A stretch of DNA of 62,352 bases, filler included, from Hausera hauseri (taxonomy: Eukaryota), in NCBI GenBank assembly GCA_046269625.1. It is 9 parts of 9 records of this genome, joined end to end, with 100 filler letters (N's around TTAATTAATTAA, not from the genome) between each part and the next. Parts side by side here need not be neighbours in the genome. Positions count along the whole stretch, not along the records: positions 7,911 to 17,037 come from JBJURY010453245.1; 8 more parts are not named here. The stretch is one strand, 5' to 3'. Below, piece after piece: positions 1 to 54,597 of the stretch (positions are counted from its first letter, which is position 1; every line of letters begins with the position of its first letter). Both the position numbers and the translations under genes were made by a program. The notes below the pieces were generated by a model. The model had not been told where the DNA came from and made no database searches. It worked only from the letters and a program-made list of their open reading frames with translations.

Positions 1-1557
1 AGTGATACGGATTATGCGGAAGCACAGCTGGTTTGGTCTAAATACAGTTGCAGTTGTCTTTTGGATTATATGTTGCTATATATAAAGCTCGACGTATACT
101 GGTTAGGCGATATTTTTGAGTGGTTTAAAAAAGAAGTTAGGTTGCAGGATGGATTAGAGGCTAATAATTTCCTTTCAATTCCAGGTTTAAGTTGGGCGAC
201 AGCATTAAAATCAAGTCCTTGTAAGATTGAGCTTATCCAGGATCCTGAGATGTATCACTTCTTTCAATCGGGTATTCGCGGTGGCATGACTTTTGTAAAT
301 AAGCATAGGGTTGTCTCTGATCAAAGCACCAGTCTCCTGTATATAGATATAAATAATTTATACGGCTGGGCTTTATCACAACCACTGCCATTTGCGAATT
401 TTGTATGGATATATGATGAGAATAAGTTAATCTGTCTAACTGAACAATTGCCCTATATTAACTGTGTCACAGAAAAACGGGGTTTAGTATTTAAAGTTGA
501 CTTAAGCATTCCTGCTGACAAACATGATGAGTTGGACCAACTGCCTTTAGCCCCAATTAATAAATGTCCTCCTGGTTGAAAAGTTAAGAAATTGCTGCTG
601 ACGCATAAGCGTAATTCCAACTATGTTGTTCACTATCGTCTCTTACAGTTGTACATCGAGTTAGACGCTGTAGTTGAAAAGGTACATCGGGCTGAGTTTA
701 ATCAGAGTGATGTTTTTAAGGATTATATCAATCTAAATACTGCAAAAGGGCTGCAGCAAATAATCCTTTTGAAAAGGACTTTTTAAGCTTAGAAACAATA
801 GCTTTTACGGTAAAACAGTCGAAAATTTGATTAATAGGTCAAATCTGAAACTGTGTAATAATGCTAAAAAACTAGTTACATATGCTAGTAAAGCCCAGTT
901 TAAAGAGAGTATTATAATAGCCGATGATCTGGTTGCCGTTCTCCTCGATAAAGATATGGTTACGTTACATAGACCCTCATACATCGGTCAGGCCGTACTT
1001 CATCTATCTACGTTACGGATGTATGAGCTGAATTATACCGACTTGGAGACATATAGGCATCAGTTTAATTGCAAGTTAAATATTGTTGCCTGTGACACAG
1101 ACAGTTTTTTTATCAAATGCCATGGTGTGGACTTAAAATCACAACTCTTACCGGCAATGATAGCAAACGAGCAGTTAGATACATCGAACTATAATAAGAC
1201 TGATCCACTGTACTCGACTCGTTTCACAGCTGTAATTGGCAAATTTAAAGACGACAGCAAGGGCCGCGTCCAGTATCAGGAAGCGATTTTTCTACGACCG
1301 AAATCCTATGCACTCAAAACCCAAACCAAACCAGTGTTCAAGTGCAAAGGAATCAACCTCAAGCAGACAGAGCTACAGTTTGACAGCTACCGACAGGCTT
1401 ATGAATCCGGTTGCAGCACCATGGTGGACCAGGAACGAATTGGCAGTAAAAACCATCAACTAATGACAATCAGGTCGAAAGAAAAGCATTGGACCCGTTT
1501 GACGACAAACGCCAATGGATTGAGAAAAACCGGAGTGTAGCATACAAACATTATTGA
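1..1557 (+). pseudogene. Protein-primed family B DNA polymerase (Polinton/Maverick/adintovirus-like), C-terminal part, frameshifted
   Basis: Motifs SIPGLSW..ALK, GIRGG, YIDINNLYGWALSQPLP, NNSFYGK (789-815, other frame), ACDTDSF, IGKFKD, LRPKSY, CKG and a terminal DDKR; several frameshifts and stops; AATAAA at about 1588. Confidence 0.9.
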
Positions 1558-3849: not shown

Positions 3850-5250
3850 GTAACAAATTCGTCGGGTAAAATTTTATGTTAACAATTTAATAGATTCACT
3901 AATATATGCATAACAGAAGTATGACAAATTGACTGACCTTTTTTGACGCTATTCTTTAAATTTCCGATGATTTCTTTTTGTTTCAATGATTGCTGTTGTC
4001 GATAACTGATAAAGTAAAATTTGACATAATAACGCATGGTAAATGATGTGCAATTCTGGGGAATCGCTGGTACCTTTGTAGACAATTTGAACAGGTTTTG
4101 TTAGGTGTAGATTCTCGAGATATGGATGTATCAATGAGAATATATCACAAAATAATTGAATGTTCAAAATGTTCAATGTCACTAATTGTTCATAAATAAG
4201 GAATCTCGTGTAAAAGTGACTGTTGCAAACTGTGTCCACCATACTGTTCTCGCATGGTACGAAACTCTGGAACAACAGTTGGAATAAAGTATTTAGCTGA
4301 CTCATTGTTAGGCAGTTTTCACTAGCGAATTGAAATAATTTGCTGGCGACCTGTTATTTGACATCGGTGTCGGACATGAGTAACAGCGAACACGTCAAAC
4401 TGATTTCTTCGTCAGATAAACTCTTAACATCTTCCGCAGATGAGTCTTAGATACTGTTGCCGAGTATCGAGTCTTGATCCATGGACATGGATAAATCTCC
4501 GTTATGGGTATTGTCTAATTTAAGGATAGCCTTAATAAAGTCCGTGCAGAACACAATTGGATTGATGCTGGTTATGGCCATGATTTTAAATACTGCATTG
4601 AATACATTACCGAATCTATCGCTAGGTAACTCATTCGACTGTTCGATAATCATTTTCAGAATCAATGGAGGATGACTAATCATGCATGTGTCATCATATT
4701 CTTCTAAAAATTGTTCTTGTACGACACTTCCAATACCCGCAATCGCTGTAAATACATGTCCAATTCATCTTGCCATGCGATTAACTTCGCTGGAGAATTG
4801 CAATGCTCATCGGCTGTAACCTTCGCAATCCATTGCTTTATTACCTGGATTGTGTAAATCTTCTGTTGGGCTATTACAATATTTTGAGGAATGCTTTCAT
4901 AATATCAATGAACGTATTTATTACGACGATCTGATCAAGAATAGTCATGACAGACTGTGCAGTACTCTTAAACCACGTTAAACAATAATTGTACATATAC
5001 CCGTAGAAAATCAATTGTTTGGACTTATTTGGGAAGTCACAGTCATAGATATAATAGGAAATTAGACTTCTGACTGTTTTTCCTCTAATTATATCCTTAG
5101 TAAGTACGTTCTTTTGAACGTATTTTAGCTTATTCAGCAAGTTGTATATATTGAACCATGTTAAGACATTCGACGGAGTCATTTCTTGGATTAAAATGGG
5201 GATTGAATCGTCGATTAATAGAGATTGAAACGGCAAACGCTTTGAAACCA
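3850..5250 (-). pseudogene. Degraded fragments of unidentified helical (possibly HEAT-like) host protein gene(s)
   Basis: Consecutive co-oriented minus-strand ORF pieces (3949-4305, 4447-4683, 4874-5251) with protein-like composition, broken by stops; family not recognised. Confidence 0.35.
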
Positions 5251-6471
5251 AACAGCGCTTATCAAATGTATTTTCTCCCGAGTTGAAAAATTGCCCGATT
5301 TGCGAACTTGTTCTAAATCTTTACTGCTCAACTGTTTACCGCACTCTAAACACATAAAATATTTAATTACTTCCCAAAATACAAGATTAAATAGATCTTT
5401 TACTCGAGCCGGTTCCGGTGCACTCATTCGTTTAGCTTGTGGACCAGCATTTACCAAAGGCTCATCCTGACCATCATTTCTCAAATCCAAATGGGAAACA
5501 TGTGACGACGACTTAAATCCTGGATATGAATCATGTTCAATGACCTGAGTTTTATGATCTAATTTTCGATGGAGTTCAAAATCCGTTATATTGATAAATT
5601 GCAATATACAGCCGGTACAATGTTTGAACACGAGTTCTTTGTGAGTCTTCAAATGCTGGAAAAACAATCCGGTCTGACCGGCATTCGACATGGAACCCGG
5701 TGCATCAAGAACGTTCATTGGCAGAGCATCATTAATCGTATAGAGCCGTAAACAATACGGACAAATCAGTTCGTTCGTGTCACTATGGACTTTTTTGAAA
5801 TGTCCGATAACATCCTGGTAAAGTGACGTGTGGAAATTGCATATTGCACAACGGTACGGCATTTCATGTTCTCGATGAGAATTTTGCAAATGATACGCCA
5901 GTGCAAAATTACTGTCGCACTGTTTCTCACAAATCCGACAAGAAATCGTACAGATTATATTGCCGTTGTTTGTGTCGATATACACACGCTGTTCTCCATC
6001 GGGACCCATAACGGACATGTGTTCGGCTTCCATGTGATTGCGCAATTCGAATGCGTTATCTAACATTTTGCCGCACGTTTGACATTGGATAATGTCACAG
6101 ATTTTGAACATTTTCATGGATCTGTCGTCGATGTGCTGCAAAATGTGTTCAATTGTCGACACATTCGAGTAGCAAATCGTTTGACATGCGGCGCAACTAA
6201 ATCGATATTCGCCTTTGTTTTGTTGGGTCATGTAACGACCTTCAATTCGACCGTAATAGAAGTCATATAACGGTGTTAATTGGGTTGTCAGTATAAAACA
6301 ATTTGAATCATCCTCTTTTCCATCTTTAGCACATTTTTGAACCATTATTCCTTGTTCAGTGGATATGATTTCAAAACCCCACTTCTGACACCAATTCATA
6401 TTGACGAGATAAATCCAACACGAATTTTGCATTAAATCGTGATTAAACGAGAGTAAATGACTGTTACACAA
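5215..6471 (-). CDS. POGZ/ZNF280-family C2H2 zinc-finger protein fragment (intronless, ends probably chimeric)
   Basis: DFYYG...FSCAAC...HILQH, CRICE...HLQNSH..HEMPYRCAICNF.TS.YQDVIGHFKKVH..TNELICPYCL, matching the POGZ/ZNF280 finger cluster. Confidence 0.75.
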   Translation of the reverse strand: MCNSHLLSFNHDLMQNSCWIYLVNMNWCQKWGFEIISTEQGIMVQKCAKDGKEDDSNCFILTTQLTPLYDFYYGRIEGRYMTQQNKGEYRFSCAACQTICYSNVSTIEHILQHIDDRSMKMFKICDIIQCQTCGKMLDNAFELRNHMEAEHMSVMGPDGEQRVYIDTNNGNIICTISCRICEKQCDSNFALAYHLQNSHREHEMPYRCAICNFHTSLYQDVIGHFKKVHSDTNELICPYCLRLYTINDALPMNVLDAPGSMSNAGQTGLFFQHLKTHKELVFKHCTGCILQFINITDFELHRKLDHKTQVIEHDSYPGFKSSSHVSHLDLRNDGQDEPLVNAGPQAKRMSAPEPARVKDLFNLVFWEVIKYFMCLECGKQLSSKDLEQVRKSGNFSTREKIHLISAVWFQSVCRFNLY

Positions 6472-7810
6472 ATATGATTTAATCCACGTAACAAAGAAAA
6501 AACAGAAAACTTTAATTCCCTTTTATAAACAAACCGATCAATTAATTATTGGTAACTACAAACCACAGAAATCTACAACATTAATACACACAATATCTCC
6601 AAAAATGTCCTCATAGAAAGTCGATTAACTTCATATTTGCCGAATTAGTTCACCAGTACCACTATACTCATCGGACATAATTGTGTACTCAAACCGAACA
6701 TTATTATTCCTTCGTGTAACTGTGTCGATGATATCGGTGAAATCGCGTTTTGTCAGCCAAAACATCGTCATTGTTACCTGAACAAAATTTGCAGGTTTCG
6801 CTGACTGACTTCTGATACCGTTTCTTAGCATCAACATATGTCTGTGAACTGGTAGTATTTATCAAACGTGGAATAAAACTGATTTCGATTTTCTTTAACA
6901 AAAATGAGATTTCACATTCAGCATTCCGTTTGTTGGATGTCCGTAGTTATTCCGGGTTGTTGGACTGTGGTGGCATCCGAGTCCCTGGCACCACACCCAC
7001 CATTACCGCTACTTGCAAATTATTGTTATCGAAGGCGGCAAAATTAACCAAATAATAAGTAAATAAAATCCACTGTTGTATAAAATAAACCAATATTACA
7101 AAATAAAGTCAACTATGTCAACCAGACCAATTACGCAATTACCTATCACATTATCAAAGTTAATTAAAATAGGTTTGTGTAACACATTTCGAGTTTAAAT
7201 TATTCAGAATCATACAACGGTGAATTACAGATTACTGAACTTTATAAAATAGCCAAGTTTAAATTCCTTTAAAACTTCATTTTGAAACTGGAGTTTATTG
7301 ATCAAACTCTTAAAATGTCCTACAGCATCAATTCACTTAAATATTTTACCTTAAAGGTACAAAAAATATCCGTACAGTGAAACCTGCCTAAGTTTTACAT
7401 GGATTGTTCCATAAATTTTCTAAAGGTTAGGTAGGTGTAAAACTTATAAAGTTTCATGGGTAATTATGTATGAACAGGACTCCATGACATTTTACAATTC
7501 TATTGTAGGTGTGCGGTACAAAAATAGCAAAATATGCCCATATATGTAGCCATTAGGCCATTTTTCAACATTAACAAATTAACACCGTGTCCTCAGTTGC
7601 CCATTTTATTATGCCATAATTGACAATTTTTCTGCTACATACATAGGTTGGTTATTGAGAGACATCTTTAAATTTCCCCACCTGCTGTCCGCTTTGTGCT
7701 CTCCGCATTCGTTTAAATTTAAATTTACTTTAAAAATCCATATTTGATTAGACAACTGATATTCACATACAATTTGTTTGTTGGATTTATTGATTAGGTT
7801 TATTAGCTGT

Positions 7811-7910: not shown

Positions 7911-8396
7911 GGTATCATTTCCGCTCCAAATAAATTGACAGGAACAAATCTCGCAAATGGAATTACAGACAATAAATTTCAAAACACCTCATCGAAGGGT
8001 ATATGCAGGCCAAAGGAAATTGAGGCTTTTAGACAATTCCTTGCCTTTCGACGACAACGAACAAATGAGCTAAATCGAGCTATGGCTTCTGTAGTAGATG
8101 ATACGCGATAAAAGGCTCAACGGGAATCTTTACTCGGCGTAAACCATTATCAACAAGTAACAACCCAAATATTTTACAAAATTTGGGGAAGATTTCTGAT
8201 ATTCGGACAATCTGCATCCGGATTCTTAGCGATATATTTCCTGATACAGATGATTAAAGCAGTCATCCAAGCAGTAATTAATGAATACAAAATATTTACA
8301 TTAACTGGATTTTCTAGCAAGATACTGACTGCGATTATAACGCCTTTTGGAAAATTCTTAAGGCATACGAAGAGAATAGATGGAAATCAGACGTAG
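7911..8396 (+). pseudogene. Chuvirus-like (class III, gB-type) envelope glycoprotein, C-terminal membrane-proximal and TM region
   Basis: Manual translation from 7911: ...KGICRPKEIEAFRQFLAF...KIWGRFLIFGQSASGFLAIYFLIQMIKAVIQAVINEYKIFTLTGFSSKILTAII; fits the GIY...W..F..FG..SAG...K....I.GY.L....G.S..L.A pattern of chuviral G; one internal stop. Confidence 0.7.
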
Positions 8397-9029
8397 AACG
8401 TCACGTCGGATATCATAACCGTAAACGAAGAAGAATACCTATATTTTTGCGTAAGCGGAAATCTATAAAGCATATTACACGAAGAAATAATTCGGATGAT
8501 AACGAGCCTAAGGGAGGAGAAGTACCTACAGTAATAAATAGATATAAGGCGTATTCTGTTATTAAAGCACTACTGCCTATGTTACTTCCTACCGCTCCAA
8601 GTTATGAAGATTGTAACAAACGATCAATAAGTTCGTATCAAACGGAAATCTATAAAAGAACAATTAATGTAGAAGATTCTTATGAAGGAACGAAACGTTA
8701 CGGGATCCGACGGAAAATGTGTTATCGACAATCCACAGATGGTCCAAAGATGTTGTATTCTCCCAGAGAACCTTGGAACATAGAAACTAGATCAACGGTT
8801 TGGGATAATCCAAGGTTAAAAACTTTCCAGAATAATGAATTACACACTAATAATTGAGAACCATTAATTAGTACACACGAAGCGGAAGAGTTGCACATAG
8901 AAAATAACGAATTATATCCAAACGAAGAACTAAGACAGCTATCGGCGAATATAGTATCCTTCCTCGTAATCCGAATCAATGGACTCAAAATATCGGCGAT
9001 AAAACGCTTGAAGGATACATCAAACTGTT

Positions 9030-12000
9030 TTGGAACAGTAATAGAAGGACGACCCTTTACCAAAATCATTATTGAGGATCGGGAAGTTTATGCTTAATTG
9101 ACACAGGATCGGAAATGTCTTACATTAAAAATGATTCAATACCTCAAACGCTGCGAGGACACTTATGCCCACCATCCGCGAAAGACCGACGAAGTACGGG
9201 AGCTTTTGTTCAAATGTCAAAACCAATGTTTAAGTGGAACCCAGAAGTTCAGAAATTGGACAATTTTTCCATAATGAGTTTGCAGTTATGGAGCAATTAA
9301 CCGACGACGCACTTCTAGGAAGGGATCTACTAAAAAGACTGTTAAACATAGCAATTGACTTACAAACACGGAGGCTAATAGAAATCAGGTTAAACGTAGA
9401 CGTGAAAAGCGCTAAGGATAGAAAATTTGGAGAAGTGCTAATACCAGTTGACGAAAACATTCCACCAAGAACAGAAATGATAATTTATGCCCAAATACAG
9501 CAAGATGACGATCAACCAGTATATTTTGAACCGAGAGATACGTTAGATCCGAATATATTACTCAGCGATGTATTAACGAGAGTACACTCCTGCTGAGTAC
9601 CAATCAGAATAGCTAATAACGCGCAAACTCCTGTCAAGCTCCATGCTTATACTACTTTAGTACACACGTATAAAGTATCGTCAATAACTATCGAAGAAAA
9701 ACCTTACAAGTATGCTGAATTTTTATCTCATGTCGAAACTAAATTTTCCACTGAGTCCTACTATCGATTTTACGAATTATTATGCCGATATAAATCGATT
9801 ATCGCCAAGAACGAAGAAGATATTGATAGAGTGAAAGCATTAAAACTGACTATTCCGCTCAATAAAAAGCCCTGTTCGAATGAAGAAATAGACTTGGAAG
9901 ACCAAAAGATGCCAAAATGGTATCCGCCGCCGCATTCATTAAGGTCAGAGATAACGAAAGAAATCGAACGAATGCTTAAGGCCGATGTAATTAGGCCCAG
10001 CTATAGATCCTGGTACTCACCAATCCTTATGGTTGAAAACAAAGGTACTACAAAACATCGATTTTGTATTGACTACAGAGCCTTATATAATCTTATTATG
10101 AAAGATTCCTTTCCACTACCGTCAGTGAAAGAGGCTTTAGACCGATTATCAGGAGCAAAATGGTTTACCACTCTGGACTTACAATCCGGATACTGGAAAG
10201 TGGAGATAGAGGACGAAGACCGCTATAAGACAGCATTTAAAACACGCGATGGTGTTTATGAGTTTAATGTCATGCCATTGGGTATTACTACCGGGCCAAC
10301 CATATTTACGAGAATGATGAACAAAATGTTAATTGGACTGGATCATGCTTTTGCTTATTTAGATGACGTGATGATAGCGTCATAAACCGGTGAGAAACAC
10401 TTAAAGGATATTGGACATACACTGATGAGGCTAGAACAAACCGGCTTGAAATTAAATCCAAAGAAATGCAAAAGGGCTTAAAATGCAGTATCCTACCTTG
10501 GCCATATAGTTGGAGAAGGAGGATCGATACCGGAAAAATTATTATTAAATAAAATATCAGATTGTATGGAACTACAAAACCAAAAAGAATTAAGGCGCTG
10601 GCTAGGATTATGCGGTTATTATGCAACCTATATGCCAGATAATTCAAGGATAAACGCATTTTTATATCGTCTACTTAAAAAAGGAATTAAATGGAAATGG
10701 ACAGACGTCAAACAGAAAGCTTTTGATGAGATGAAGCAGATATTAACAAGTGAACCTCTTTTATGATATCCAGATTTTAACTTACCTTTCATAATTAAGA
10801 CAGACGCCAGTAAAGAAGGCATAGGTTCTGAACTAGCATAGAAAAGAGAGGATGAAGAATTAGAGCATCCGATTGCTTATGGAGGACGTTCCTTGAAAAA
10901 GACCGAGAAGAACTATTCTGTTACCGAATTAGAAACTCTAGCCGTAAAAGAGGCACTTCGACACTTCAATGTTTATGCATATGGACAGAAAATTATAATT
11001 GTAACTGACCACAAGGCCGTTACGACCCTAAACGGCAGGGCAAATAACTCAACATGTAGACTTAACAGGTGGATTGAAGAAATCACCAGATATGATATTG
11101 AATTCCAGTATAAGCCAGGGAATAAACATGTAGACGATGATGCATTATCGAGATTAAAGACCAAAACCAGTGCAATTACTGTAATGAAGAGAAGCCAACT
11201 GGAAGAGATAATAGATCATCAACGCGCTTTGACAATGGATAAAGCAATTAAAATTTCGACAGAACAGAGAAGGGATAAAGTCATCCAATAGATTATAGAA
11301 TTTGTTAAAAAGGATGTCATACCAAAAGGACGACAGTTAAAGAAACATTTACACAGACACGGACATAAATATTGCATCTTAAATGACAAGAGCAGTGAAG
11401 ATATTTTATATTACGAATGGAAAGGAAAGAAACTGATAGTTATTCCAAAAGGTTTACGAACCGAAGTACTGATGTACGAACATGATTCATATTTGGCCGG
11501 ACACATGTCTTGGAAGAAAACGCTGGAAAGAATAATGAATAAATACTCTTGGCCTAGTATCTATATTGATTTGAAAAATTGGGTGAATGCTTGTGAAGTA
11601 TGTGCAACTAAACAAAAGAAGACGAAAAATTACATGGCCAAACTAAAACCAATTGATGTACCCGACAGGCCCATGCAAGCCATTTTGATGGACATCGTAG
11701 GACCTCTTCCTACGACTCACAAGAACAATAAATATATTTTGACGTGTATTGATCGACTAACTCATTTTGTCGAGTTGATAGCATTAATTGATCAAAAGGC
11801 AGAAACCCTGGCAGAAACCGTAGTAAGGAGAATTATTTGCCGATACGGACTTCTGACCAGATACTCACGACCGAGGAAGGAATTTCACAGGCGAACTATT
11901 CGAGAAGATCACTAAGATATTCGAAATTGAGCGGTTGACAACTACCGCATGTCGCCCTCAGTACAATAAAATGGTCGAACGGATGAATGCGACCGTTATA

Positions 12001-12530
12001 CGCATATTATCAACAGTAGTAGCAAAGGATCAAAAATATTAAAACTAATTTTCAGAAGGAACTCAGTTTGCTATTAATACCACTCCACACCCGGCAACAG
12101 GATACATACCATTTTTATAATGTATGGACGTGAAGCCGTGTTACCTACGGACTAAGGAATGACGCCATACACGGTCAATCCCAAAGATTTAGAACGAAAT
12201 TTTGCAGAAGTACTACAGATGCGACTGCAAAAGTGTTAGGAAATAGCCAAGGAATTATCCCAAGACTATCAAAAACAGTTTAAAAAACAGTATGACAAGA
12301 AAGCAAAACCGCATGATTTAGAACAATGCAATAGGGTTTATGTACATTACCCAGTAGCCAGAAAAGGCACCTCATTAATATTAACGCGTACAGGCAGAGC
12401 ACCGTACGAAGTTACCACAGTTACGCCAACCACAGTATATATCAGTAAAAATGGAAATGAAGAAGTCATACCGGTACAAAGAGTTGTTAGGACAGAGATA
12501 CGGTCCAATAAACGTTACAGCCTACGACAA
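9030..12530 (+). pseudogene. Ty3/Gypsy pol (aspartic protease, RT, RNase H, integrase), with multiple stops and frameshifts
   Basis: (L)IDTGSEMS and LLGRD; RFCIDYRAL, LDLQSGYW, MPLG, YLDD; KTDAS, NYSVTELE, TDHK; H-x6-H...C-x2-C, MDIVGPLP, IDRLT; C-terminal GRAPY and RYSLRQR. Confidence 0.95.
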
Positions 12531-12559
12531 CGCGAGGTAAAAACGTCCTCAATAGTTGC

Positions 12560-13974
12560 CAGACCAATATCGTACATTCAGATAGTTTTAGCATTATCAT
12601 TAATTGCTTTTTATATTTCGAGAACACAAACTCAATGGTGGTACGATGAATTTACGCTAGGAGATATATACGGAATTCGGAAAAGTGGAATAAAAACGAG
12701 GAACAAACCAGAAAAGGAGGATTAACCCCGAATTAAATTCAAAAACAGGAAGACAATAGGAAGACTACTACAATCTATGGCATTCCATTACTACTCACCA
12801 AACTCCATATGTGTTGAATTTAAGGTCTGGAAACCATTCCGTGATTTCGGGAGATTTCAAATTGTCTTAGACGATGTAACAACAAAAGAAGCAAAGAATT
12901 ATGATTTTGAACCTGGAGGTTACACGCAATGCTGCGACATAGATTTTCGACACACTTATAACGTCACCTATCGCCTGTACTTACCGGACTCATCCGACGT
13001 TTATATTGAAACAAAACCGCAATTTCAGTTGTTTATTCCTGCATGGAACAGACATCATGGGATAAAACCCGACGAAATTCTGCGATCCACCGACCCATAT
13101 ATCCAGCTATTAGACGAAAATATCCAGAAAATTTCTGTAAACAAGGCAAAACAATGCATTCAAGTAGACGCCCGAACAGAGCTAACTGTTAGCCGAGAAA
13201 TTAGTATCACCTTCGAAGCGACAATTGGACCAACTCCGAAGATAGAATATTGTTCTATACGCGTAGATGTACAGCACCCCTATTGCAAACTGCCCGTGAA
13301 CCAAAAGTTCAAAATAAAATTTGACTTATACGAAGTACGACTTAACAAACCAAGTATACAGCTACGAACTTACTATCCAGAAAATAGAATAATGGAAATT
13401 TCAGCGGGAACCACGACCAGAGTCGACCATTAAAGTTAATTTAACTACCCTAACCGTTACAGCGAGCAACATACATATAGCAGAGTTGGAAAGCACACCT
13501 ATCAAATATTCGGCGCACCGGTATAAAATCGTGTTCTTTGTGGAAAAGAAACAAAATTACGATATACACATAAGTTATCGAACAACATATAATAATCAAA
13601 TTGTAACACTATTTAAAAATACTTATCAAACAGAATGAAACTTACTAAAACCACAATCTGAATACATAGTACAAGTGCATGCAGAGAACAAGCAAAAAAG
13701 AAAAATTACATTACGCACCTTAGACGAAATTCATACAGAACCGCACTTATATGCAGATGAAAACAACGAAAACACAATTTTATCTACTACCCAAGCACCG
13801 TTAGAATTAACCGTCTTACCGATTGTATCTATTGTTGCACTATCAACATTTCTTCTCATTATGTTAATTGCGATTTTTCGATTAGCTGCCCAAAACCATT
13901 ATTCCAAGCGTCCTAAAAATTCAGAATGGGAATTAAGGGAATTGGAAAATCCTATAGACCCTATGATAAAATAA
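12560..13974 (+). pseudogene. Type I membrane protein with fibronectin type III-like ectodomain, in frame with integrase
   Basis: Hydrophobic signal YIQIVLALSLIAFYISRTQT right after IN; SPNSICVEF...DIDFRHTYNVTY; canonical FN3 motif LKPQSEYIVQVHAEN (about 13642-13690); TM LPIVSIVALSTFLLIMLIAIF and a short tail. Confidence 0.7.
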
Positions 13975-14019
13975 CCTGACAGTTACAGATCAGGTTATTC
14001 TGTCATCAAACAAAGAATT

Positions 14020-14077
14020 TGTTTTGGTTTAAAACCATCCTTTGTTTTAAGATTAACCTTCATGTTTTTTTGTTCAG
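14020..14077 (+). promoter_or_regulatory. Putative splice acceptor (branch point + polypyrimidine tract + CAG) ahead of the accessory ORF
   Basis: gattaacc...catgtttttttgttcag: a T-rich island in an otherwise A-rich sense strand, followed by a long coding-like frame. Confidence 0.5.
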
Positions 14078-14729
14078 ATTGGTAAGTAATCAAACCCAGT
14101 TGAACCCAAGCCGACTTAAAATCGACACCGAAGAAACTACGAGCTGATTTAGAATCGACACCGAAAACGCTACAAGTCGACTTAGCATCGACGAATTTTT
14201 ACAGAAATATGTGACAGTACGGATCCCAAATTCAAAAGCCGCCTATAGGCAAATCAATACTGAATTACAAGGGAAGAACTTTGTTCAATACGGAAAAGTT
14301 AATGAAATCGCAAACGGTTTGAAAGGAATGAGCGAGGAGGCCAGAGCAGTATACTAGTATGCATGGATGTAGGACAAAGATGCTAGGGCATACCCTTTCA
14401 AACAAATCACTCAATATCAAACGGATAAAGAACAAAAAATATACCTACACGTGGCCGACGGAGAAATTTATTATAGACTAAAAGATCAGAAATGATACTG
14501 TTCACAAGAAAGGCAAAGCCGGTTTAGCACCTTCGTATTTGGCAGTAGGAGCTTCCACGATTACGAGCTAAAATTTCGCGTAGCCGCCTTACCAGTAAAA
14601 TTGATGATCGAAACAACGGAAGAAGAAGTAATACCTACCTCATTGCTACCCTTAGAGTTTAGACAAAGGCCCACGAAAGACGAATATGGCACACATCTAC
14701 ATTCGTTTAGATTGGTAGCCGATGAAAGA

Positions 14730-15250
14730 AACTTCAGGATTGTTGCAAAAACTATGGAGAAGGAGAAGAAAGAAATTATATTCCGATCGAAATATCCATT
14801 CAAGAAGAAAATGTGGCCGAGGTCTATTCGAAAATCATTAACCCGTAAAAGAAAGTGCTAGAAACTTATGCGGAAGTTACCGGGATTAAAAGTGAACAAT
14901 TGAATCATGGAAAGGATTCCAAGTTAGTACAACAAGAAGTAGCACAATGCTTCTATGGATACATCTTAGTGGGATATCAGATAGAGAGGATTATGAAGAA
15001 ATTAGCCATACCGGTAACGTATATAGCCGGAGTGAAAGAGAGATAGAAACCCACCCGACTATTATTAAACAAATGGGAATTAAGGCTAAAGAAAAATGGG
15101 CCATCTACCACTGTCCGTGGAAGGCCGTTTTAAGTTAATGGTAGAGGCCATGACCGGTGGAAATATAAAAATAAGCAGATTGCTCACTGCAAATCAAAGA
15201 TCCCAATATCTAAATGATATAAATGCTGGAATAAAGTGGGAACATGAATG
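14730..15250 (+). pseudogene. REX4/ISG20-like DEDDh 3'-5' exonuclease domain, catalytic residues apparently substituted
   Basis: IEISIQEENVAEVYSKIINP*KKVLETYAEVTGIKSEQLNHGKDSKLVQQEVAQCFYGYILVGYQIERIMKKL aligns by eye to REXO4-type ARVSIVN...VYDKYVKP...T.VSGI.PE.L..G.....VQKEVA..LKG.ILVGH.L.NDL..L. Confidence 0.75.
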
Positions 15251-16199
15251 GATTTCCAGCAACCCCGGGAAAAACCTACGAAATTTCCCCAAACCCGAAG
15301 GACTCAGCACACGATATCGTAAACATTTCGGACCATAATCTCCACCCAGGAATGTCGAAATTAAACCAATATGAAACTAGCAAATAATTATACAAGGATT
15401 GAAAACGGAGAAAATGGAGAATAAAACACGTACAGATAAAAACCCAGCATAAGTTATGGCGCCACCGCAGATAATAATCTATTTAAGATACCAGAAATTC
15501 CTCGGAAATACATAGAAGAAAAACATAGAAATTCAGAGACCGAAACCGGAAAAACAACTAAAAGGAAAACCTCCTTTTTCGATTACCTATTCAAGAAAAG
15601 AAGTAAAGAAGGAGAGAAAAGATTAAAGGAAGGACACAGGCTAGACAGAAAAGATTCAAAACCAACACGACTAGATAAACCAAGACAACCCGCGGAAAAA
15701 CTCTCAAAAATAGACATACAATCCCGCGTTGAAAAGTTCACGAGAAACCCAAGAAACCGGAAGAACAGATAACAGAAATAAACGTTCTACGGAAGAAGAC
15801 ATCCACAGAAGATGTGCACTACGCCACTACGGCAGACTACCCCAGGATGCTATTAGCCACAGAATATTACAGCAAACAGAAGATTAAAGAGGCAATGTTT
15901 TTTGTCAAACTAATGCCTGCCAGACAAGTTTACAAGAACACTTATGTCTGGGAAAATCCTAAGATTGGAAAATACGTTGCTCCGATATTTCAGTCCATGT
16001 GGATAAATCAGTTAAGCTACTACTAAAGAAACAGTACCAAAAATGCCGGTCGACTGGTAAAGTTCCCTATTTAGATCCAGATACTATCAGCAATTAGACC
16101 CTAATAGCCGTTGGATGCGACCCTAAAAAAAGCTCGATAAAGCGAAAGCAAAAAAGAATCTATGCCTACCTATACCAAGATGAGGAAGGCTTGATAGTA

Positions 16200-16526
16200 G
16201 AGCCTATTGAGATTATGTTAAGAGTGGATCTAGATGACGAAAATTGGGTGAGAGAGGAGAACGAATGTCCCGTATGTGAGGCAAATCTGAAACAAGGATA
16301 TGTAGTGTTAAATAACCCAGACTGCCGACATAAATATTGCAGAGACTGCCTAGAGAAATAAACGTTGGATAATGGAAAGACCACATGTCTAGAGTGCCGA
16401 GCTGAAGCTGCCGACCTAAAGTACTACTCAAACGGTAGCTATACCAGAATAGTTAAAATTAAGCCGTACCACAGTTTTAAATTAGAGACGAATACCAGAG
16501 AAAGCCAGCCTAGTACCAGTTCTTGA
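16200..16526 (+). pseudogene. C3HC4 RING-finger domain at the end of the accessory ORF
   Basis: CPVC-x14-CRHKYCRDCLEK*-x7-CLECR (16266-16400); the conserved Trp codon is replaced by TAA, so the ORF track misses it. Confidence 0.85.
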
Positions 16527-16617
16527 CCCAGTCTGAGAACACGCATGGACATGTTGCGTTTGCCTCGCCCTCGCGGCACCTCTCCTGACGCAATGGGGAC
16601 ATCCGAAGATGCCGTTC

Positions 16618-16629
16618 AGGGAGGAGAAG
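16618..16629 (+). other. Polypurine tract (PPT)
   Basis: agggaggagaag immediately before the TGTTACA LTR start. Confidence 0.85.
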
Positions 16630-16999
16630 TGTTACAAATGGTAGATACAATTGATAACGCCGTGAATAAGAAACGCGAACATTGTAAATAATTTATTAGA
16701 ATACCAACATTATAAATAATTTAGTGGAATAGAACTGTATCGTACCACTAGGATATATATATTATTTATGAATGAATAGACTAAAATTTTATTTGTATAG
16801 AATAGTGATAGAAAGAAACGAATGGCGTATAGTTGAAAATAAGAATTAATAATAAATAATGTATAGAATGGAGAAAATAATAGAGTGCGAATTAATAGTT
16901 TATGACGTACCAGACTATATAAAGAAGGCAGTTTGAAAATGAAGACAGAACTTACAACAGCGATTTGGTCGAGTTGAAGGATCAATTTGAATTGTTACA
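16630..16999 (+). repeat. 3' LTR (about 370 bp)
   Basis: Starts TGTTACAAAT after the PPT and ends ATTGTTACA (imperfect inverted termini); TATATAAA at about 16916. Confidence 0.75.
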
Positions 17000-17529: not shown

Positions 17530-20500
17530 TTATTTCAACTGCAAATGTCCGTACGCCTAACTCTTATTCCGCTCCACCCACTTACGCTTATCATCATTAC
17601 ATGATAAATCGATTTTTGTATTAGTTACAGTATACAGCTGGTGTTCAATTGATCGGATAATCGTTTGAGACACAACCATTGATTGCCCTCCTTGTCGTTA
17701 TCCATATTCTTCTGCTCCTCCATCATAGCATGTAATAATCACCCTGGTTTATTTCCATCTGGGTCAGCTGAACTTCTTTCGCGCACATTTTTGGTCCACA
17801 GTCCGTCAGAAGACTGTAACACTGGACGCAGAAATATGCATTCCCGATACTGAACCCGACCTTTGCTTTCATCCTTGATTCAGCCAATTGTGTTTGTGAT
17901 AACGTTGCTGTACAACGGATGATTCTGTGATTAGTTGGACGTGTCCAGTAATCCGTCTTCCATTATTTGCCGCAGTAGTTTCTCGCAATTGACGTTTTAA
18001 GTTTGAGGAAGAAACTGTCACTGTCACCGGCAGTTATATTGATCATGCAGCCGTCAAACATTTGCCGCTATCGTGCCAAGTAACAATACTGCAGCTCACA
18101 TCCGTAGTTTGCTCAGATCCAATAGTACCTGTCCTATATAACTTGGCCAGTCCAGTACGACATCTTTTTTGTTTAAAAGTACGGCAACCAATCTATCGGG
18201 AATGTGCGTTGATCGCCTGAACTGAGCCTTGCTGGTGTACGTAACCAGCCGCTTTTTACTTTTTCATAGGCGCATATTGAGCCACTTTTTGAGATTCGCT
18301 ACTGTTTTTCCTTAGAGAGAATTGTTTTTCAGCTTGTAGTAGTCCTTTTCAAACTTGTTGCAAGCTGCAGCTCGTTTTGCCGAATTTCGAATGATGTATT
18401 ATTTGAATATCTGAGCCTGTGAGAATAGAATTGCGCGATGCAATTGTGTGACATGTACACCAAGCTGCATGTAAATTCATAATAGACGCCAACGAATAAT
18501 GTAATTTTTCTTCGGTTCATGCGTCATAAGCAGCTTCTTCACCTTTGACCCGGGTGGACATTGGTAGTTCATCTATGACTGAAAGTTCATCCAGAAAGTC
18601 AAGCAACTCATCTGGTATCATGAGGTCGACTTCCATTAGGTATCCAACTGAGCTGTTTTCTGCCGTGTCTGCTCTCGGCAGATCTTCCAGTATTTAGTCC
18701 AGATCTTCCTTGTAAAATATCCATTCTAATGAACCATACGGCAAGGGTTGCGAAAGCGTCCTGCCCTACAGGTTATTAATGCCGATATACAGCAGTGATG
18801 TAGTATTATAATTGGCAGCAGCAGCAGCACTAACATGATGCATTTTGACAAACGTCATGCCGCCACGAATACCTTCATCAAACAGTAAGTACATTTCTCG
18901 ATTTTGCAACAGCTCAATATCACGATACAATGTCATCAGGGCTGACGCCCAACTCATTTTCGGTATGAAATAAAAGTTGAGTGGCTCCAATCTATCTTCT
19001 TGTAGCGCTTTTATCCGAAATGACTGAAACACATCGGCTAATAAGTATACGCCCGGTTTTAAATACTGAAGCATGTACTTTTAAGCATATGCTTCCAGTT
19101 TTAAGTACTGAAACAGGTTTCTACATCCGAACTATGACAAAAATCCATGTGTTTTCTGCCATTCATTTTCTGTTATACCGGACAAACGCGGTGGTAATTC
19201 TTCTGTCGTTTGAAGCTGCTCATATGATATCAAAAAGTCGTATGGAAATATGCCTTTGCTACGTGCAATATGTACAGGGAACTGTGTTCATGTTAAGGCA
19301 CATCCGGCAAAGCATTTACCAGCTTAGCCAATGATTCATTTAGAAATTGCAATGAATTAAGGAATCGTACCTGGAACCGATTAATACGTACATACAGTGA
19401 TAAGTATTTTTCCATCATAGTCGGAATTACGGATAGTTCCCAGTGCGCAAATCCGCTTATTGCCGATTTAAAAATATGATGACAATCATAACCCCTGAAT
19501 TTATGAAATACCACCGATAGGAAGGGCCGCACACGCCTTGTTAAAATGCATGAATTACATACGGCTCCGAGATATCGACTGGTAAAATGATCGTGATCCG
19601 GTACGAGCTGTTCCTGTGCATCGAACGGTAATATTTTGTGACACAGATAACATTTATTGATAGCTAAAAAAATCAGCTGTTCGCCTTCGTCTGTCCAGAC
19701 CTAGGGTATAGTACAATTATTGCGATACCACGGTGCGATTTTCGCTTCTACTATTGTTTCCAACTGCTGCAGAAAATCGTGAATACAGTTCCAACCATGA
19801 AACACGTAATACTGTGGTTGATCAGTGGCTTTTATTGGAACAACCAACATATCGACAGCGACTGGAACATGTTTTTGGTCATATGCATTGTGCCGTGGTA
19901 GAATAGCTTTGATATTTGCATATACCACATATGCCGGACTGTTTGTTTTTGACCAGTCACGGAATGTGAGTTCCTTTTTGACGGGCATGACGTACATTAT
20001 TGTTCCTGACGAGTTTTGTTTGCGCAACGTCACATATTTTCCCCTGCTGTGTCTGAACTCAAACCATGCAGACATATAGGACACTATTTACACTGTATAC
20101 GCTTTTTTATGAACAAGTCATGGCCCACGTTCAACAGTCTGTCTAAATTTGTCACGGCCACGTAATGGAATTTTTCCCCATCCTTTATCTCTAACAGTAT
20201 AAAATTTAATGAGCGTCCATTCGAGTTCTGACTTCTATAGATTACGTCCACATGAGGATTCTTTTAAATCTCTTCACCTGCCGGTATTTCTACGACTGTG
20301 TTGTACCGGAACACGTTAATTGACAGTGTCCGATTACGCCGTTCAAAAGTCGGAATGGTTTTCAATTTCATCGGCATCCAACATTCATCAACGTACAATT
20401 CGGAAAAATACTGCCGATACTGATTTGGACGATATGCACTATGCCTATCCACTTGGTCATATTTTAACACGGCCAGAATACTGTAAATGAAACAGTATTC

Positions 20501-21270
20501 GTCGTCAGTATTTCTTACATTCACTACCGCCAGAGACTGCTTCAGAGTTGCAGGTGTCGGTATGAATGATCGCCCACACAAGTAAATTTTATCACTGGAC
20601 TTTGTTACAATAAAGCCGAGAGTGACAATTTGTATAATTCGCTAGCCACTAACTTTTTCGGTATATTTGGCCATTTTCTCATCCAGTCTTTCTTCTACAT
20701 CGGCAAAAAAATCTTCAGAATGTGGTACAGCTCGATGTGAGAGGTACCATTGTTTTCTGTCACCTTGCAAATTTTCTAATTCTGAAAGTGCATAATACTG
20801 CATTTTGCAGTAGTGTTGAAATTTTTTTACTTCCGATTCCAACCGGTTGCGCACACTGGAGGGTACATGCTTTAGTTGCGTTGTTGTTTTCGTTGGCATG
20901 TTTACTTTAATGTCCACGTACGATCTGTTTAGATCGTACATGACAGTAATGCCTCATTTCTGCTGCTGCTTCTGCTCTTTCTGCTGTTGTCGCTGCTGCT
21001 GATGCTGTTGTTGCTGCTACTGTTTGCTGATTTTTATGTATTCGTCAAGACTTGTGAATGCTTGACGTTTCCCGCCTGTTGAGGGAATGTTGTTGTTGTT
21101 TGTTGCGTCCATCATTATTTGCTTTTGGAGTGCTTAAACTGGTCCAAGTGGTCCTTGCGCTGGCTATAAAATTGTTCATAATTGATTTGTGCTGCGACTA
21201 TCGAAGAAAACCGGGTCCGTTTACCATGCACTGTTGTGGTGCCATAATATGACTATGACATCCATCCATG
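17530..21270 (-). pseudogene. Near full-length protein-primed DNA polymerase B gene (Polinton/adintovirus-like) with N-terminal domain, Endo VII-like zinc module, exonuclease and polymerase domains; heavily degraded; start approximate
   Basis: SFIPTP..L....AVVNVRNTDDEYCFIYSIL; VVYAN.(E)A; DHDHFT.RYLGAVCNSC; VVFHKFRGYDCH; GIRGG; INNL.G; DSF; LRP; DDKRKW; poly-Q near the N-terminus. Confidence 0.88.
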
Positions 21271-34849: not shown

Positions 34850-37800
34850 TGAACACAGATAGATCATGGATGATCTAACGATAAGAAGTGCTGAAGTTGG
34901 GAATGAAGAGAAAAGAGAAGATTGTTATCCTTGATCAATTCTTCCACACAATCTTGGCGGGAGATCGGGGCCCGCCTATGGACCCGACGCGTCGGCAGCG
35001 GAAACCCGGCTGTGCCCAACCAAATGGACCAGAGGGCGGTGGTCGATCTGGGAACATCATCATCCCCCCGTGGCAAAGTTAAAACTATGAAGAGTAAAAG
35101 AACAGAGAGAAAAAATCGCAAAACGAAAAGTGTCTGTGTCAGCTGATCTTAGTGTGAACAAGACGTTGGGTATCTTCTATTGATTTTACCCTGCTATACT
35201 TGCTGAATGTGACTCTGCGTGTTTTGTCTTTATGCGATGTGTTTGTTTGCGGAGATTAAAGTTGGGGAAAATTTGTGAGATTTTTGTGTAGGTTTTGTGT
35301 CGTGCGAAGGTAAATCGGAATAAAGAGAAGAGGAGGGCGGAGAAGGAAGAGGGACTGTTGAAAAAGGATGGTTAAAGGCATTGAAAATAGTGTTAGAAGA
35401 CGAAATAGTGATAAAAGGTGTAGTGGCGGATAATGGAACAGAGGAAAAAGTTGGAGTAGAGATTGGAATTGAATTGAATGAAAGAGTGGAAGAGGAAGAT
35501 GATACAGAGGGAGTGGTAGGAATAGAAGTAGATAGTGTAGAAAATGATGGAGCAGGACTAGGAGCAAAAGAGGAAGGTGGAACTGATATAGCAATAGATA
35601 TAGGGATAGCAGGTAGTGGAGGAGTGAGAAAAGAGGTTGACGTGTCGGTTGGTAAGGTGTCGTCGACAAAGAAAGCGGGCTTTAAGTTGGTAATGTGTAC
35701 TCTAAGTTCTTTGCCGTCTTTAGAGATAATGGCGTTGTGTGAGTATAGCTGTATCATTTTATAGGGCCCCAAGTACCGTGGGTGGAAACCCCAAGGCGCC
35801 TGATTCTTTAGCCATACGAATTTTGCCGTGTACAAATCTTCGTGTAAGTATGTTTTATCTTTGTGAAATATCCTAAAGAACGAATCTTTACTCACCTCGA
35901 CGAAGTGATTTTGCGCTGCCCGTATCGTCTCATCTGTGGGCGTGTCGTCCATGGCGGTTAGTTCAAATAATGATTGGACAGGAGCTCCGAATAAGACTTC
36001 AGTAGGTGAGCATCCTGTAAAAGTGAACGAAGTGTTCCGCCAACCAAGCAGAACGAACGGAATAAGATTCGTCCAACTACTGTTGAACTCTGCGAGAATT
36101 CGTAGTGACGTTTTCGATGTTTGGTGGAAACGTTCTAGAATGCCATTCAATTGGGAGTGATAAGGCGTAGTATGTATATGATGGGTCCCCAATTGGTTAA
36201 CAATAGATTTGAACAGGTTGGATTCAAACTGTGGACCCTGATCCGTGAAGGTAAAACGAGGTGATCCAAACCTGTTAATCCATTTATGAATGAAGACGTC
36301 AACTATAGTGTCGGTGTTTGTGCTCCGCAGAGGGATGGCTTCTGGACATCGCGAGGAACGGTTTATCATGGTAAGGATGAATTGATATCCGTTGTCTGGA
36401 GGAAGAGGGCCGACGATGTTGATATGCACGGATTCGAAACGCGATGTGCAGGGAAAGTGGAATAGTGGTGGCTTTAAATGATTAGCTGTTTTGTATTTTT
36501 GGCAAGCCACATACAACTTAACCCACGCCTGCATATGAGAACGCATTGACGGCGAAATTACTTGTCGATGGAGTAAACGAAAGGTGGCTTTAGCACCAGA
36601 ATTGTTTAGTGCATGCATTCTGTGAAATGCTTGCCTTTGCAATGATGGTGCTAGAATTATTACGGAATGGCCTGGTTTGGAAGTGTCTAAAGCCACGCCG
36701 TCAACGAATGTGCAAGACTTAAAAGAATTAAGCATTTCCTGAGATGACTGGTTCTGTTGAAGTTGATCTTGCGTAAAATCGGTGAAAAATTAATCGAACT
36801 AACCGACCTAGATAAAAAATCGGCAATTAAATTGTTAACCCCGTTAATGTGTTCAATATCGAAGTTAAATATCTATCAGTATGATATTTGTCGTTCTTGG
36901 CGTGTGGAAGGGTATTTCATAGCCATGATGTTAAGTAAGGACTTGTGGTCGGTTTGTATAGTAAAATGACGAGCGACAAGTAGGTGGGAGAAATGCTTTA
37001 AAGCGAGAACGGTGGCCAATAGTTCTCAATCGAACGTTGAATATCTGGTTTCAGGGGATATTAGCTTACGAGCAAACAATTCTAGTGGTTGATTTTCTCC
37101 CTTATAGATCTGGTGGAGTACAGCGCCTGCTGCAGTGGTTGACGCGTCTGTCGTAAGGTTAAGTTCTGCATCAGGCTTGGGAAAAGCGAGAATATCAACG
37201 GTCTTAATTTCTTCGCGTAACTTATCAAAGTTTTCAACCAATTCAAGTGTCCACTGGATTGGCTGATGTTTTTTTGCCGCCGCTTAGGTGTGCGAATGAT
37301 TCTGTCAATTCGGAGCAATATGGTACATATTTATGTACAAAGTGTAGTGTACCAAGGAAGCTGTGCATTTCGGTGGTTGTAAGTGGCAACTGGATATTTT
37401 TAAGAGCTTCGACTCGGTATGGTTGGAGGGGAATGCCCGTCTGGTGTAATAACGTGGCTTAAAAAGTTAATGCGCTTTTTGGAGAAATGGAATTTATCAA
37501 AACTGATTTGGAGATTATGGTGGTTAAGGCGTTGGAATATTGCGCGAAGGTGTTCCTCGTGTTGTTTGGCCAAAGATGAAACGACTAGAATATCATCGAT
37601 ATAAGGGTGTGCAAACAGGAAATCTAAAAGAATTGAATCAATGTGCCGCTGAAAAGTTTGTGCGGCATTCCTCAAACCGAATGGCATAAACAGGTATTCG
37701 TAGAGACCAAAAGGAGTAGTGACAGCAGTTTTTCTATGTCTTCTGGTGCCACCGGTATTTGATGGTGTGCTTTAGCTAAATCAATGGTCAAATAGATGGT

Positions 37801-40345
37801 GGTTGAATTAAAATGATACAAGATATCCTTGATGAGTGGTAAAGGGTACGCATCTATGATTGTCAAGTTATTCAGCTGTCGGTAGTCACTGAATGGTCTA
37901 AAAGTACCGTCCTTCTTTGTACAACGTGTAGAGGTGATGACCAAGGAGATTTGGAACGACGTACTCTGTCGGCACGTTCTAATTCAAGAAATTCAGCTTC
38001 TACGGCCTGTTTACGACGAGGTGACAGAGGTCGTACCTTTTGGCCTATTGGACGTTGATGCTGTGTAACTATGTGGTGTAAAGTACTGTTTGCTGGAGTA
38101 AACGTACGATCTTTTTAAGTACGCGTGTACATAATGTGTTGACGAATTGCTGTAAAGTTGTAGGTAACTGTAAGAGATTTGGTGGAAGTGGTGAAACGGC
38201 TTGAGTAGTAGCAGATGCAATTTGTGAATTGTTGGCTATGTGCAATAAAGTGGTATTTGGTGTAAGATGGTCGAATTGAAAATGGTGTTGAATGAAGTGA
38301 TTTTGTCGAATGAATTAACGTTGGTGGCAATACCACAATTATCGACATCGAACCTCAGTCGAATATCTGTATTAGTATTTAAAAAATTACGAATTGAATT
38401 ATTGTTATGAAAATTTGAATTATTCATTGATTTTGCCAAGATTGACCTCCGCGTCCCGGTCGACTGCGCGGTAGTCGAAATGCTATTGACATGCTCAGCA
38501 ATGTCGCTATTGGTGCCATTCCTCAAACATCGCTGACTGCAGTCAACCAATAGGTTATAATGTGATAGAAAATCGGAACCAAGAATTGCCGTCTGGACGT
38601 TAGCGAATGTGAACGTCCAGTAGAAAGGTGAAGGAAATTTTAGTAAAGTGAAAGATAATTTAGCCATGCCAGAAATGTGCAGCGGTTGACCTGAAGCGGT
38701 GTATAAAGACTTAATTCTAAATGGAGAATTTTGTACAGGAAAGGTTCGTGGTATTAAAGAAATCGCTGCACCTGTAGCGGTGAGGAAATCAACATATTGC
38801 GTTGTAAGAGCGGTGATTGCAGCCTTTAGAGTAAATACAGCAAAAGAGACGTGTCGGCGTTCAGAAAGTGAAGTAGTGCCTTTTCCAGAGTTTGCCGTGA
38901 CTTCTGGCAGCGAACTTAGGTTTTTTGAGCGGGTGAACTAGGACGAATATTAGAAGGAAAAGTAGTACGTCCATCATTCGTATTTAATTTGAAAGTGCAA
39001 CCTGGAATGCATTTACGAGCTTGGTTTTTGAACCGTGCATGGTAGATGCAAACAACGGTTTCCGAAGAAAAACTCTTGTTATAAAATTTGCACCCTAGGC
39101 AGCACTTCTGCGCACTCGCGTTAAATCTGCTGTGATAATAGCAGATCGACGAACGCACAGGCGATGGTGAGCGGTTTCTAGACGCACAACGAACGCGGTC
39201 AGCGAAAAATCCCCTCGGCGGGACAGAAAAAGTTCGTTTAATTTATTATTAATATTGTTGATTGTTGCGTGTACTGCAATATTTTCAGCACGTAGCTGAT
39301 TAAGCTGTTGTTCTACTGATGTGTTATTGGCTTGAATATCGTTAGTGGCAACTGCTGCCGAAACAACTGATGGGGAATTTACGTGTCGAACGTCGTGTGT
39401 CCTATGGGCTAATTCGGCCAATTTCTTCAAAGACGTGGAGTCCTCCACCACGGTAAGTAGAGCCCGGATTTGGATAGGTAGCGCATTGAGGAAATAGTGG
39501 CGCAGTAGATCTGTATTGTGTTCTGTAGTGACGCCGAGGGTATGTAGATGTGCTAAAGAGGTGCGTAAGAATTCTGATTATCATTGGGTGCCTATAACGT
39601 TGTCGTGGAAGAAACGTTGTATGATCGTGTCCATGGAAGGTTCTGTGATCTTAAGAACTGCGTTGAAAAGCTGGGGATATGGGTCAGGAAGTTCAAAGAT
39701 TTTGATGATGTTGTGAATGCGTGTTTTGATGTTATTAGGGAGTAAGAAGAGGAGATTATGTGCTTTAGTTAAAGAGTCAGTAATGTTATTTGCCTCTAGC
39801 CATAGTTGATGAAATTGCAACCAAGTTTTTCTGGAGCCTTGGTTGTCAATAAAGAATACGGTGCAGTGGGGAAAAGGAGCGGAAGAGGTAATAGGTGAGA
39901 GGTTGCTAGCAGGGGTAAGAATGGGATTTGGAGAAATATGACAGGTTTTGATTTTGTGGTAATTTTATCCGTGGTGTATATGTTTGGCGATGAGTTCATG
40001 CCACCACGGGTACGGATATGTATGTGGAGACAAGTATGGGTTGAGAAAGATGGTAGGGTTCCGGTGAGGGGTATTATAGAACCGTTATATTTAAGATAGA
40101 AATCGGAAGATTTGAGTAAGAAATAAATGAAGGTACGAAGGGTTGCAATATGTAAATGTGATGTAATAAGTGTGTATATGTGCTTATTATTTATGAAAAG
40201 GAAAATAGAGAATTGGAAGGTAGTCTACCTGGGGACGCGCTGTGGGGCCGACGCGAAAGACGCCGTCTGACCGACCCGTGCAGGGTTGACGGCCGGGACC
40301 TCAGCCTAGTCGCGACGGGCCACAAATTGCGAAGTGGCCGAATTT
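34850..40345 (-). mobile_element. Near full-length CsRn1/Boudicca-like Ty3/Gypsy retrotransposon (gag with double CHCC, PR, RT, RH, IN with Ser/Pro/Thr-rich tail), degraded
   Basis: CYYH...C...C and CIYH...C...C; ILGSDFL; MPFGLRNAAQTFQR, YIDD; TTDAS; TDQGPQFES, ERFH, YLGPY; PPT-like ggggggatgatga before TGTTCC at 35056. Confidence 0.92.
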
Positions 40346-40369
40346 CCCCTCAAAAGTGCGGCCTTTGTT

Positions 40370-44556: not shown

Positions 44557-44637
44557 ATTTCCTCAGAATAAATCTGTGAGAAAAACTTCAAACATTACCT
44601 AGTGCTTACGTTCTGACTGAAAACTTATCTGAATACA

Positions 44638-54370: not shown

Positions 54371-54597
54371 GGGGGTTGAAGGGGGGGTTCGTGTGAGGGT
54401 GTGTCTTGGTGATGTTGGTGCTTGATTAGTGTGCATGGCTTAAGCTCAATTATATTTGCATTTTTAGGTTTAACATCAATTTTATTAGCATTTCTAACTA
54501 TCTGTGTTACTTCTGGGCTCCCGCTAGAGGTGAGGTGGTTCCTGTCCGGTGGTTGTTCATCTTCACGTGTTCCTGGTCTTTTGTTATGGGGCAGTAG

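Follow-up and report, generated by a model that had tools for sequence, protein, structure and literature searches.

Behind its integrase, a decayed retroelement of Ty3/gypsy type in the genome of Hausera hauseri carries the gene of a predicted type I, single-pass membrane protein with three predicted domains of the fibronectin type III (FN3) kind, and in this family of elements the protein is likely to be fused in frame to Pol. The whole FN3-gene feature is located on one contig (positions 7911-17037), bounded by assembly gaps, within the window, by which we mean the entire stretch of 62,352 nucleotides that was analysed. We lean, with somewhat less than even confidence, towards a complete reading in which the fused three-FN3 type I protein is freed by signal peptidase and acts as the attachment partner of a gB-type fusogen of the same element.

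The element, judged from Pfam models and sequence motifs, is a decayed member of Ty3/gypsy (Metaviridae). Its pol (9060..12533, plus strand) matches PF00078, PF17917, PF17919, PF17921 and PF00665 in this order, which is the gypsy-type arrangement PR-RT-RH-IN, with E-values of 3e-22 for RVT_1, 1e-22 for RT_RNaseH, 1e-17 for Integrase_H2C2 and 2.5e-5 for rve; the protease motif was recognised by eye. The YLDD motif (10356), the GPY/F-like motif GRAPY in the integrase tail (12393) and the basic stretch RYSLRQR at the integrase end (12513-12533) are all on the plus strand, and in tblastn the element's pol is collinear with intact Pols (E to 1e-129). Its RT was confirmed in none of eight matches among viral contigs. 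The single copy examined, whose 5' end is lost in a gap, contains 11 stops in 1169 pol codons and several frame changes; a rough model built for this analysis from pol stop density puts the decay at ~0.06 substitutions per site (0.03-0.11). The initial annotation had invoked the in-frame Pol-Env polyproteins of belpaoviruses. This analogy is not borne out, since the Pfam models matched are of gypsy type, no Pao peptidase model was matched (we take such models to be diagnostic of Bel/Pao), and the fusogen is situated upstream of pol.

This fusogen had been overlooked earlier, together with the RING-containing region downstream. The contig starts inside env, at 7911, and gag would lie beyond the gap in which the 5' end of env is lost. 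The remaining C-terminal part of a gB/chuvirus-type envelope glycoprotein (7911..8393, plus strand, one stop) matches PF24664 (Monjiviricetes_fusion, E 1.8e-19, profile positions 468-604 of 653) and has a hydrophobic anchor near 8223 (KD19 2.06). The spacer of ~700 bases between env and protease (8318..9097, plus strand) is read as coding from its translation; it gave no Pfam hit and has no LTR-like composition, its A+T content (0.63) being equal to that of pol, against 0.72 in the LTR-like stretch. The gB-type env and pol are thus placed in the same element, as there is no LTR-like sequence between env and PR, and the env-pol junction itself is broken in this copy. A PTAP motif occurs at 8588, between the env anchor and the protease; we presume it to be late-domain-like, possibly an ESCRT late domain. 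The FN3 protein is not the Env but represents extra cargo, with a separate env before pol, and the suggestion that it is not a fusogen gains from this, because the element has its own gB-type env (PF24664) and the FN3 protein matches no fusogen by structure.

After the integrase, the element is arranged as a signal segment, three beta-sandwich domains, a transmembrane (TM) helix, a tail, a splice-acceptor-like site, an exonuclease-like and RING region, a polypurine tract and a likely LTR. The polypurine tract (16618-16629) is followed by the TG (16630) of the likely 3' LTR, which extends to the gap at 17037 and includes TATA-like sequences at 16711 and 16916 and AATAAA at 16851, all on the plus strand. 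The LTR is called from the succession of polypurine tract and TG because the window contains no second copy of it.

Several other sequences share the window with this element. Two copies of a different LTR-type element (37611-40302 and 59677-62352) lie in opposite orientation ~20 kb apart and are about 86-87% identical. An apparently intact non-LTR element (51026-55812, minus strand) encodes, by eye, a 404-aa protein with a zinc knuckle (ORF1) and an endonuclease-RT of 1137 aa (ORF2). Decayed stretches at 18766-20900 (minus strand) and 773-1540 (plus strand) resemble, by eye, a protein-primed DNA polymerase B and endonuclease VII, in the manner of Polintons or adintoviruses, and a decayed alpha-tubulin-like fragment, also recognised by eye and possibly a retrocopy, is situated at 40306-40824 (minus strand). 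Likely host genes are a C2H2 zinc-finger protein (5215-6522, minus strand, Pfam) and a long HEAT-repeat, GCN1-like frame (57103-58929, plus strand, by eye). An open frame for a 513-aa coiled-coil protein (43021-44562, minus strand) contains an internal repeat of 116 nt at 77%.

The membrane protein is best read beside its intact relative, P0003, a natural protein of 479 aa. P0003 was the sole match to the first piece of the window protein among 1.84 billion representative proteins (E 1.7e-44, 36% identity) and is collinear with both pieces (tblastn E 2.7e-64; blastp 9e-54 and 1e-23), an agreement that goes beyond coincidence. Its layout matches that of the window protein in the signal segment, stalk, three domains, TM region and tail, and six Cys and the Tyr motif are common to both, which speaks for constraint on the protein. 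Further relatives were sought among 3335 near-length candidates, where the one match was P0003 itself, and the P0003 locus was confirmed neither in JGI metagenomes (130 pattern matches) nor in viral contigs (two pattern matches). A degenerate pattern of the signal segment gave no matches in either collection, and the protein searches around P0003 yielded no host relative or paralogue from which the module might have been captured, as the initial annotation had proposed.

All segments of the window protein are encoded on the plus strand. The basic stretch is followed by the signal-peptide-like segment (12558..12632, KD11 2.63), with a putative cleavage site placed by eye. The charged stalk (12633..12773, with a stop at 12723) is helical by prediction in P0003. 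It leads to predicted FN3-like domains 1 (12774..13043, 26/90 residues identical to P0003) and 2 (13116..13380, 36/91), both with conserved Cys, and to predicted domain 3 (13495..13722, 30/80), which has a stop at 13636 and is in a different frame from domains 1-2. The C-terminal part (13813..13974) consists of the TM helix (about 13813-13878, KD19 2.89), a tail of ~31 residues and the stop. Domains 1 and 2 form an internal repeat (z 10.4 for domain 1 against domain 2 of P0003). Domain 3 was also tried as a repeat of domains 1-2, which is not detectable by sequence (z -0.9 to 2.9). The type I topology proposed in the initial annotation is supported, and the LKPQSEYIVQVHAEN stretch at 13645, the TM helix and the short tail to the stop at 13972-13974 were found as it had described them.

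The predicted domains probably have an FN3-type fold. The AlphaFold model of P0003, made from a three-row alignment, is of low confidence (pLDDT 53.9, pTM 0.27) and displays three seven-stranded domains and a helix at 429-466 that corresponds to the TM region. Of the 128 Foldseek matches between this model and the PDB (E <= 0.001), the best 43 are all tandem-FN3 proteins, some named as such by their titles and others by our own presumption; the top match is gp130 D4-6 (E 2.5e-8). The whole-chain TMq values of the Foldseek matches are only 0.13-0.18. For single domains, VIA aligned P0003 domain 3 (321-400) with fibronectin FN3-6 (Z 9.0, rmsd 2.0, 78 aligned), domain 1 (74-162) with a monobody (Z 7.6, rmsd 2.9, 83 aligned) and domain 2 with a Centyrin (Z 6.9, rmsd 3.6, 96 aligned), and identity in the VIA alignments with FN3 receptors amounts to 5-17%.

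The window's own domain 3 was modelled with pLDDT 63.2; its Foldseek rows are FN3, monobody or cytokine-receptor structures with TMq 0.50-0.64, none at E <= 0.001. In a wide structure search the same domain gave leptin receptor at Z 8.5, followed by CD48 (8.0), CD4 (7.9) and CD58 (7.8), with a superoxide reductase also within Z 8.0-7.8. Hence, the wide search ties FN3 with the C2-set Ig sandwich, while Foldseek, which also uses sequence, gives FN3-type rows only. The check by AlphaFold and Foldseek thus returned tandem FN3 proteins for P0003, from models of low confidence and with C2-set Ig ties in the wide search. Atlas feature leads, to be read as leads only, include FNDC5, IL11RA and FNDC9 at 0.85-0.87.

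The fold is not visible from sequence alone, since Pfam fn3 reaches only E 0.14 on the window protein (12.9 bits against a cut-off of 25) and gives no match on P0003. The modelled domains are therefore FN3-like by predicted fold and not PF00041 members by score. The L-x-P-x-x-x-Y motif, which is the tyrosine-corner motif before strand F in FN3, is present in domain 3 of both proteins (in the window protein as LKPQSEYIVQVHAEN) and is degenerate in domains 1-2. The strand-B Trp is not kept, and Trp is found only in P0003 domain 1. Neither RGD nor WSxWS occurs in the FN3 protein. A PDB sequence search gave no hits, and BFVD returned generic FN3/Ig-repeat proteins only (best E 6.6e-6) and no close viral homologue. 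Weak Pfam matches to Pox_M2, Peptidase_M1_N and CATSPERE were rejected, being below the cut-off and unsupported by the folds.

The initial annotation had described the protein as fused in frame to integrase. At the junction this is correct: no stop occurs from RYSLRQR to 12558, and the integrase tail is open through a linker of eight codons (12534..12557, plus strand), which contains no ATG, into the hydrophobic signal-like segment. It does not extend to the whole gene, whose frame is interrupted by two stops (TAA at 12723, TGA at 13636) and changes near 13420-13435; the FN3 motif at 13645, earlier placed in the integrase frame, is therefore in another one.

For the family as a whole we infer that the FN3 protein is probably fused in frame to Pol, because the junction has neither an in-frame ATG nor a good splice acceptor, and a stop and a start are seldom lost together through decay. 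The nearest upstream in-frame ATG (12219) is inside the integrase, 113 codons away. When the 265 YAG sites in 7911-16629 were ranked by a crude pyrimidine score made for this analysis, the acceptor nearest to the FN3 gene ranked 162 of 265, with no acceptor-like tract there. Spliced expression of the FN3 gene was considered and disfavoured, the candidate acceptors ranking 74-209 of 265. At the estimated decay, the loss of both stop and start has P of about 0.03, and all routes from a separate gene, including a well-placed indel, together account for no more than about 0.09, whereas a fused ancestor gives 0.93.

Conservation of the signal segment points in the same direction. No other part of the protein is as well conserved (20/27 residues identical to P0003 versus 36% overall, shuffle P 0.006), which fits a double duty. 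A basic stretch before the hydrophobic core is expected of an internal signal sequence, and in the window the 25 residues before the core comprise seven K/R and one D/E.

One can suppose instead that the protein is an accessory ORF of its own (ORF3-like), expressed from its own start or a subgenomic RNA, and that the open junction is a product of decay. We regard this as unlikely. The fusion is deduced from one decayed copy, and its only relative, P0003, has a Met directly before the signal segment. Three of its first ten residues are Met and the basic motif is missing, so that by sequence P0003 resembles a gene standing on its own. No fused protein was found among 3916 candidates longer than P0003 (a weak test), and a signal or TM tail was seen in none of 32 Pol matches, which include distant relatives only. 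Moreover, the extra ORFs of rotifer LTR elements are, in the available text of PMC5408684, typically separate spliced units. On the other hand, the start of P0003 was probably assigned by gene calling, and the edge of a contig or membership of another family could also account for it; moreover, a separate ORF would have to dispense with an acceptor-like tract, yet the next ORF has kept one. Free and fused states may both hold in different families because Burro-like elements show both: in Burro/GYPSM1 the accessory ORFs are, in the part of PMC6431247 consulted, either free or within the polyprotein.

The acceptor kept by the next ORF is a T-rich tract ending in CAG (14058..14077, plus strand), which ranks first of the 265 YAG sites; its AG ends at 14077, and the element's only GTRAGT donor-like site is four bases on, at 14082. 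The broken accessory coding region that follows (14078..16691, plus strand) has its first in-frame ATG only at 14328, and this late ATG together with the acceptor suggests, at the level of sequence, a spliced accessory mRNA. At its start TRF detects a 33-nt tandem repeat of 2.6 copies (14107-14192). A weak DEDDh exonuclease-like stretch (about 14800-14990; RNase_T E 0.011, below cut-off) is followed by a C3HC4 RING finger (16266-16400; zf-C3HC4 E 1.3e-4, 22.2 bits, above the cut-off of 21), the exonuclease-like match and the RING together spanning 14786-16400.

Passive capture of a host mRNA as a retrocopy, with no role for the element and with P0003 as a host receptor of another animal, is a further reading, which we consider improbable. 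The reading frame is kept across the join, which falls exactly at the signal segment and includes no UTR. The base composition of the membrane-protein gene is like that of pol (A 0.37-0.40 versus 0.38), and its two stops in 471 codons are not denser than those of pol. P0003 stands alone among the near-length candidates, which would be unusual for a conserved host receptor.

In the preferred reading, the polyprotein would end with the FN3 protein, behind the integrase. The basic RYSLRQR stretch would keep the integrase in the cytosol, and the signal segment would thread the ectodomain into the ER lumen, so that the end of the polyprotein is inserted in the ER membrane. Cleavage by host signal peptidase would then release a protein that spans the membrane once and has three FN3-type domains, and the remaining signal stub may tether the Pol end to the membrane until the element protease releases the integrase. 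If env and pol are in one frame, as in Burro, Pol would have a membrane anchor on either side, and gB and the FN3 protein would arise in equal numbers in one membrane. There the FN3 protein may serve as the attachment partner of the gB fusogen.

Given the rest, attachment, either in the particle or on the producer cell, is the function that we tentatively favour, at a little under an even chance; it is the least certain part of the reading. A cell-attachment partner is preferred to a fusion machine because the element encodes its fusion protein separately. Herpesviruses offer a parallel in that their gB works together with receptor-binding proteins distinct from it. A full two-component entry system of the herpesvirus kind is a more demanding proposal and appears doubtful as a whole. 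In it, signal peptidase would cut two surface proteins out of one polyprotein, namely a gB-type fusogen located ahead of Pol and an attachment protein with three FN3 domains that follows the integrase, and Pol would be held between the two anchors at the budding site. The confidences given to these readings overlap, because the type of junction and the function are separate questions.

Nearly as likely as attachment, though still only a possible outcome, is a host-modulating decoy or an entry blocker on the producer cell, which would bind a host ligand or receptor, or stop re-entry, alongside the exonuclease-like and RING products. Large DNA viruses provide known examples of decoy receptors built on FN3 domains. 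The gene adjoins this other likely counter-defence cargo and its top fold matches include cytokine receptors; furthermore, the gB-type Env of errantiviruses is described without a partner protein in the available text of PMC13524379. However, the FN3 protein has no cytokine-receptor motif, its short tail is without a conserved signalling motif, and the searches found no host paralogue that it could mimic. A structural role would agree with its being made, as is likely, together with the polyprotein.

Elements with a gB-type env before pol, accessory genes after pol and fusions of Pol with a membrane protein are each known. The first order was described in Nematoda, Bryozoa and Platyhelminthes by Chary and Hayashi (eLife, PMC13524379, consulted in part). 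These GAG-ENV-POL errantiviruses share with our element the Ty3/gypsy pol and the HSV/gB-type Env upstream, and differ in that ~4 kb of extra coding sequence follows the integrase here. The main text of that paper gives no hits for fibronectin, RING, accessory or fused.

The giant planarian gypsy elements Burro/GYPSM1 (PMC6431247, available text) likewise have env between gag and pol, in frame in Burro, and ubiquitination-linked accessory domains. Their listed cargo comprises AIR1, Smc, MATH, BIR, ankyrin, BCL2, Ubi/SUMO and dUTPase, with no hits for fibronectin in that text, and their env is described as gypsy/F-like, against gB-type here, a comparison by description only. Neither BIR nor ankyrin was seen by Pfam in the scanned 3' pieces of our element. 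The ORF3s of bdelloid LTR elements (PMC5408684, available text) resemble the present case in having TM-containing and DEDDy exonuclease ORFs behind pol, but they are separate, 210-230 aa long, without FN3 (no hits in that text) and without a second fusogen upstream.

In the belpaovirus Gag-Pol-Env of, for example, Atlas (bioRxiv 10.1101/2021.11.23.469668, seen in part), a membrane protein also follows Pol in frame; the family is another one, and the appended protein is a class II fusogen in which only domain III (Gc) has FN3 topology. Among cellular proteins, gp130 D4-6, Tie2, Dscam and fibronectin repeats share the predicted tandem seven-strand sandwiches in a single-pass protein, whereas the element's protein differs from cell-surface FN3 receptors by its Cys-bridged domains 1-2, its N-terminal helical stalk and the lack of a signalling tail. 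Searches of the open literature revealed no LTR element, gypsy included, that carries an FN3 protein as cargo.

New here, as far as these searches reach, is a predicted FN3-type membrane protein as LTR-element cargo, recognised from one decayed copy and one relative. Envelope-carrying gypsy elements have been treated as having one surface protein. A receptor-like second one would offer a concrete candidate either for recognising the cells that gB-type fusogens target or for manipulating the host. Because P0003 is intact, the protein can be tested without recourse to the broken copy. Surveys limited to gag, env and pol would miss such cargo. This protein and the likely spliced exonuclease-RING gene together give the element an organisation like that of complex viruses that carry accessory genes.
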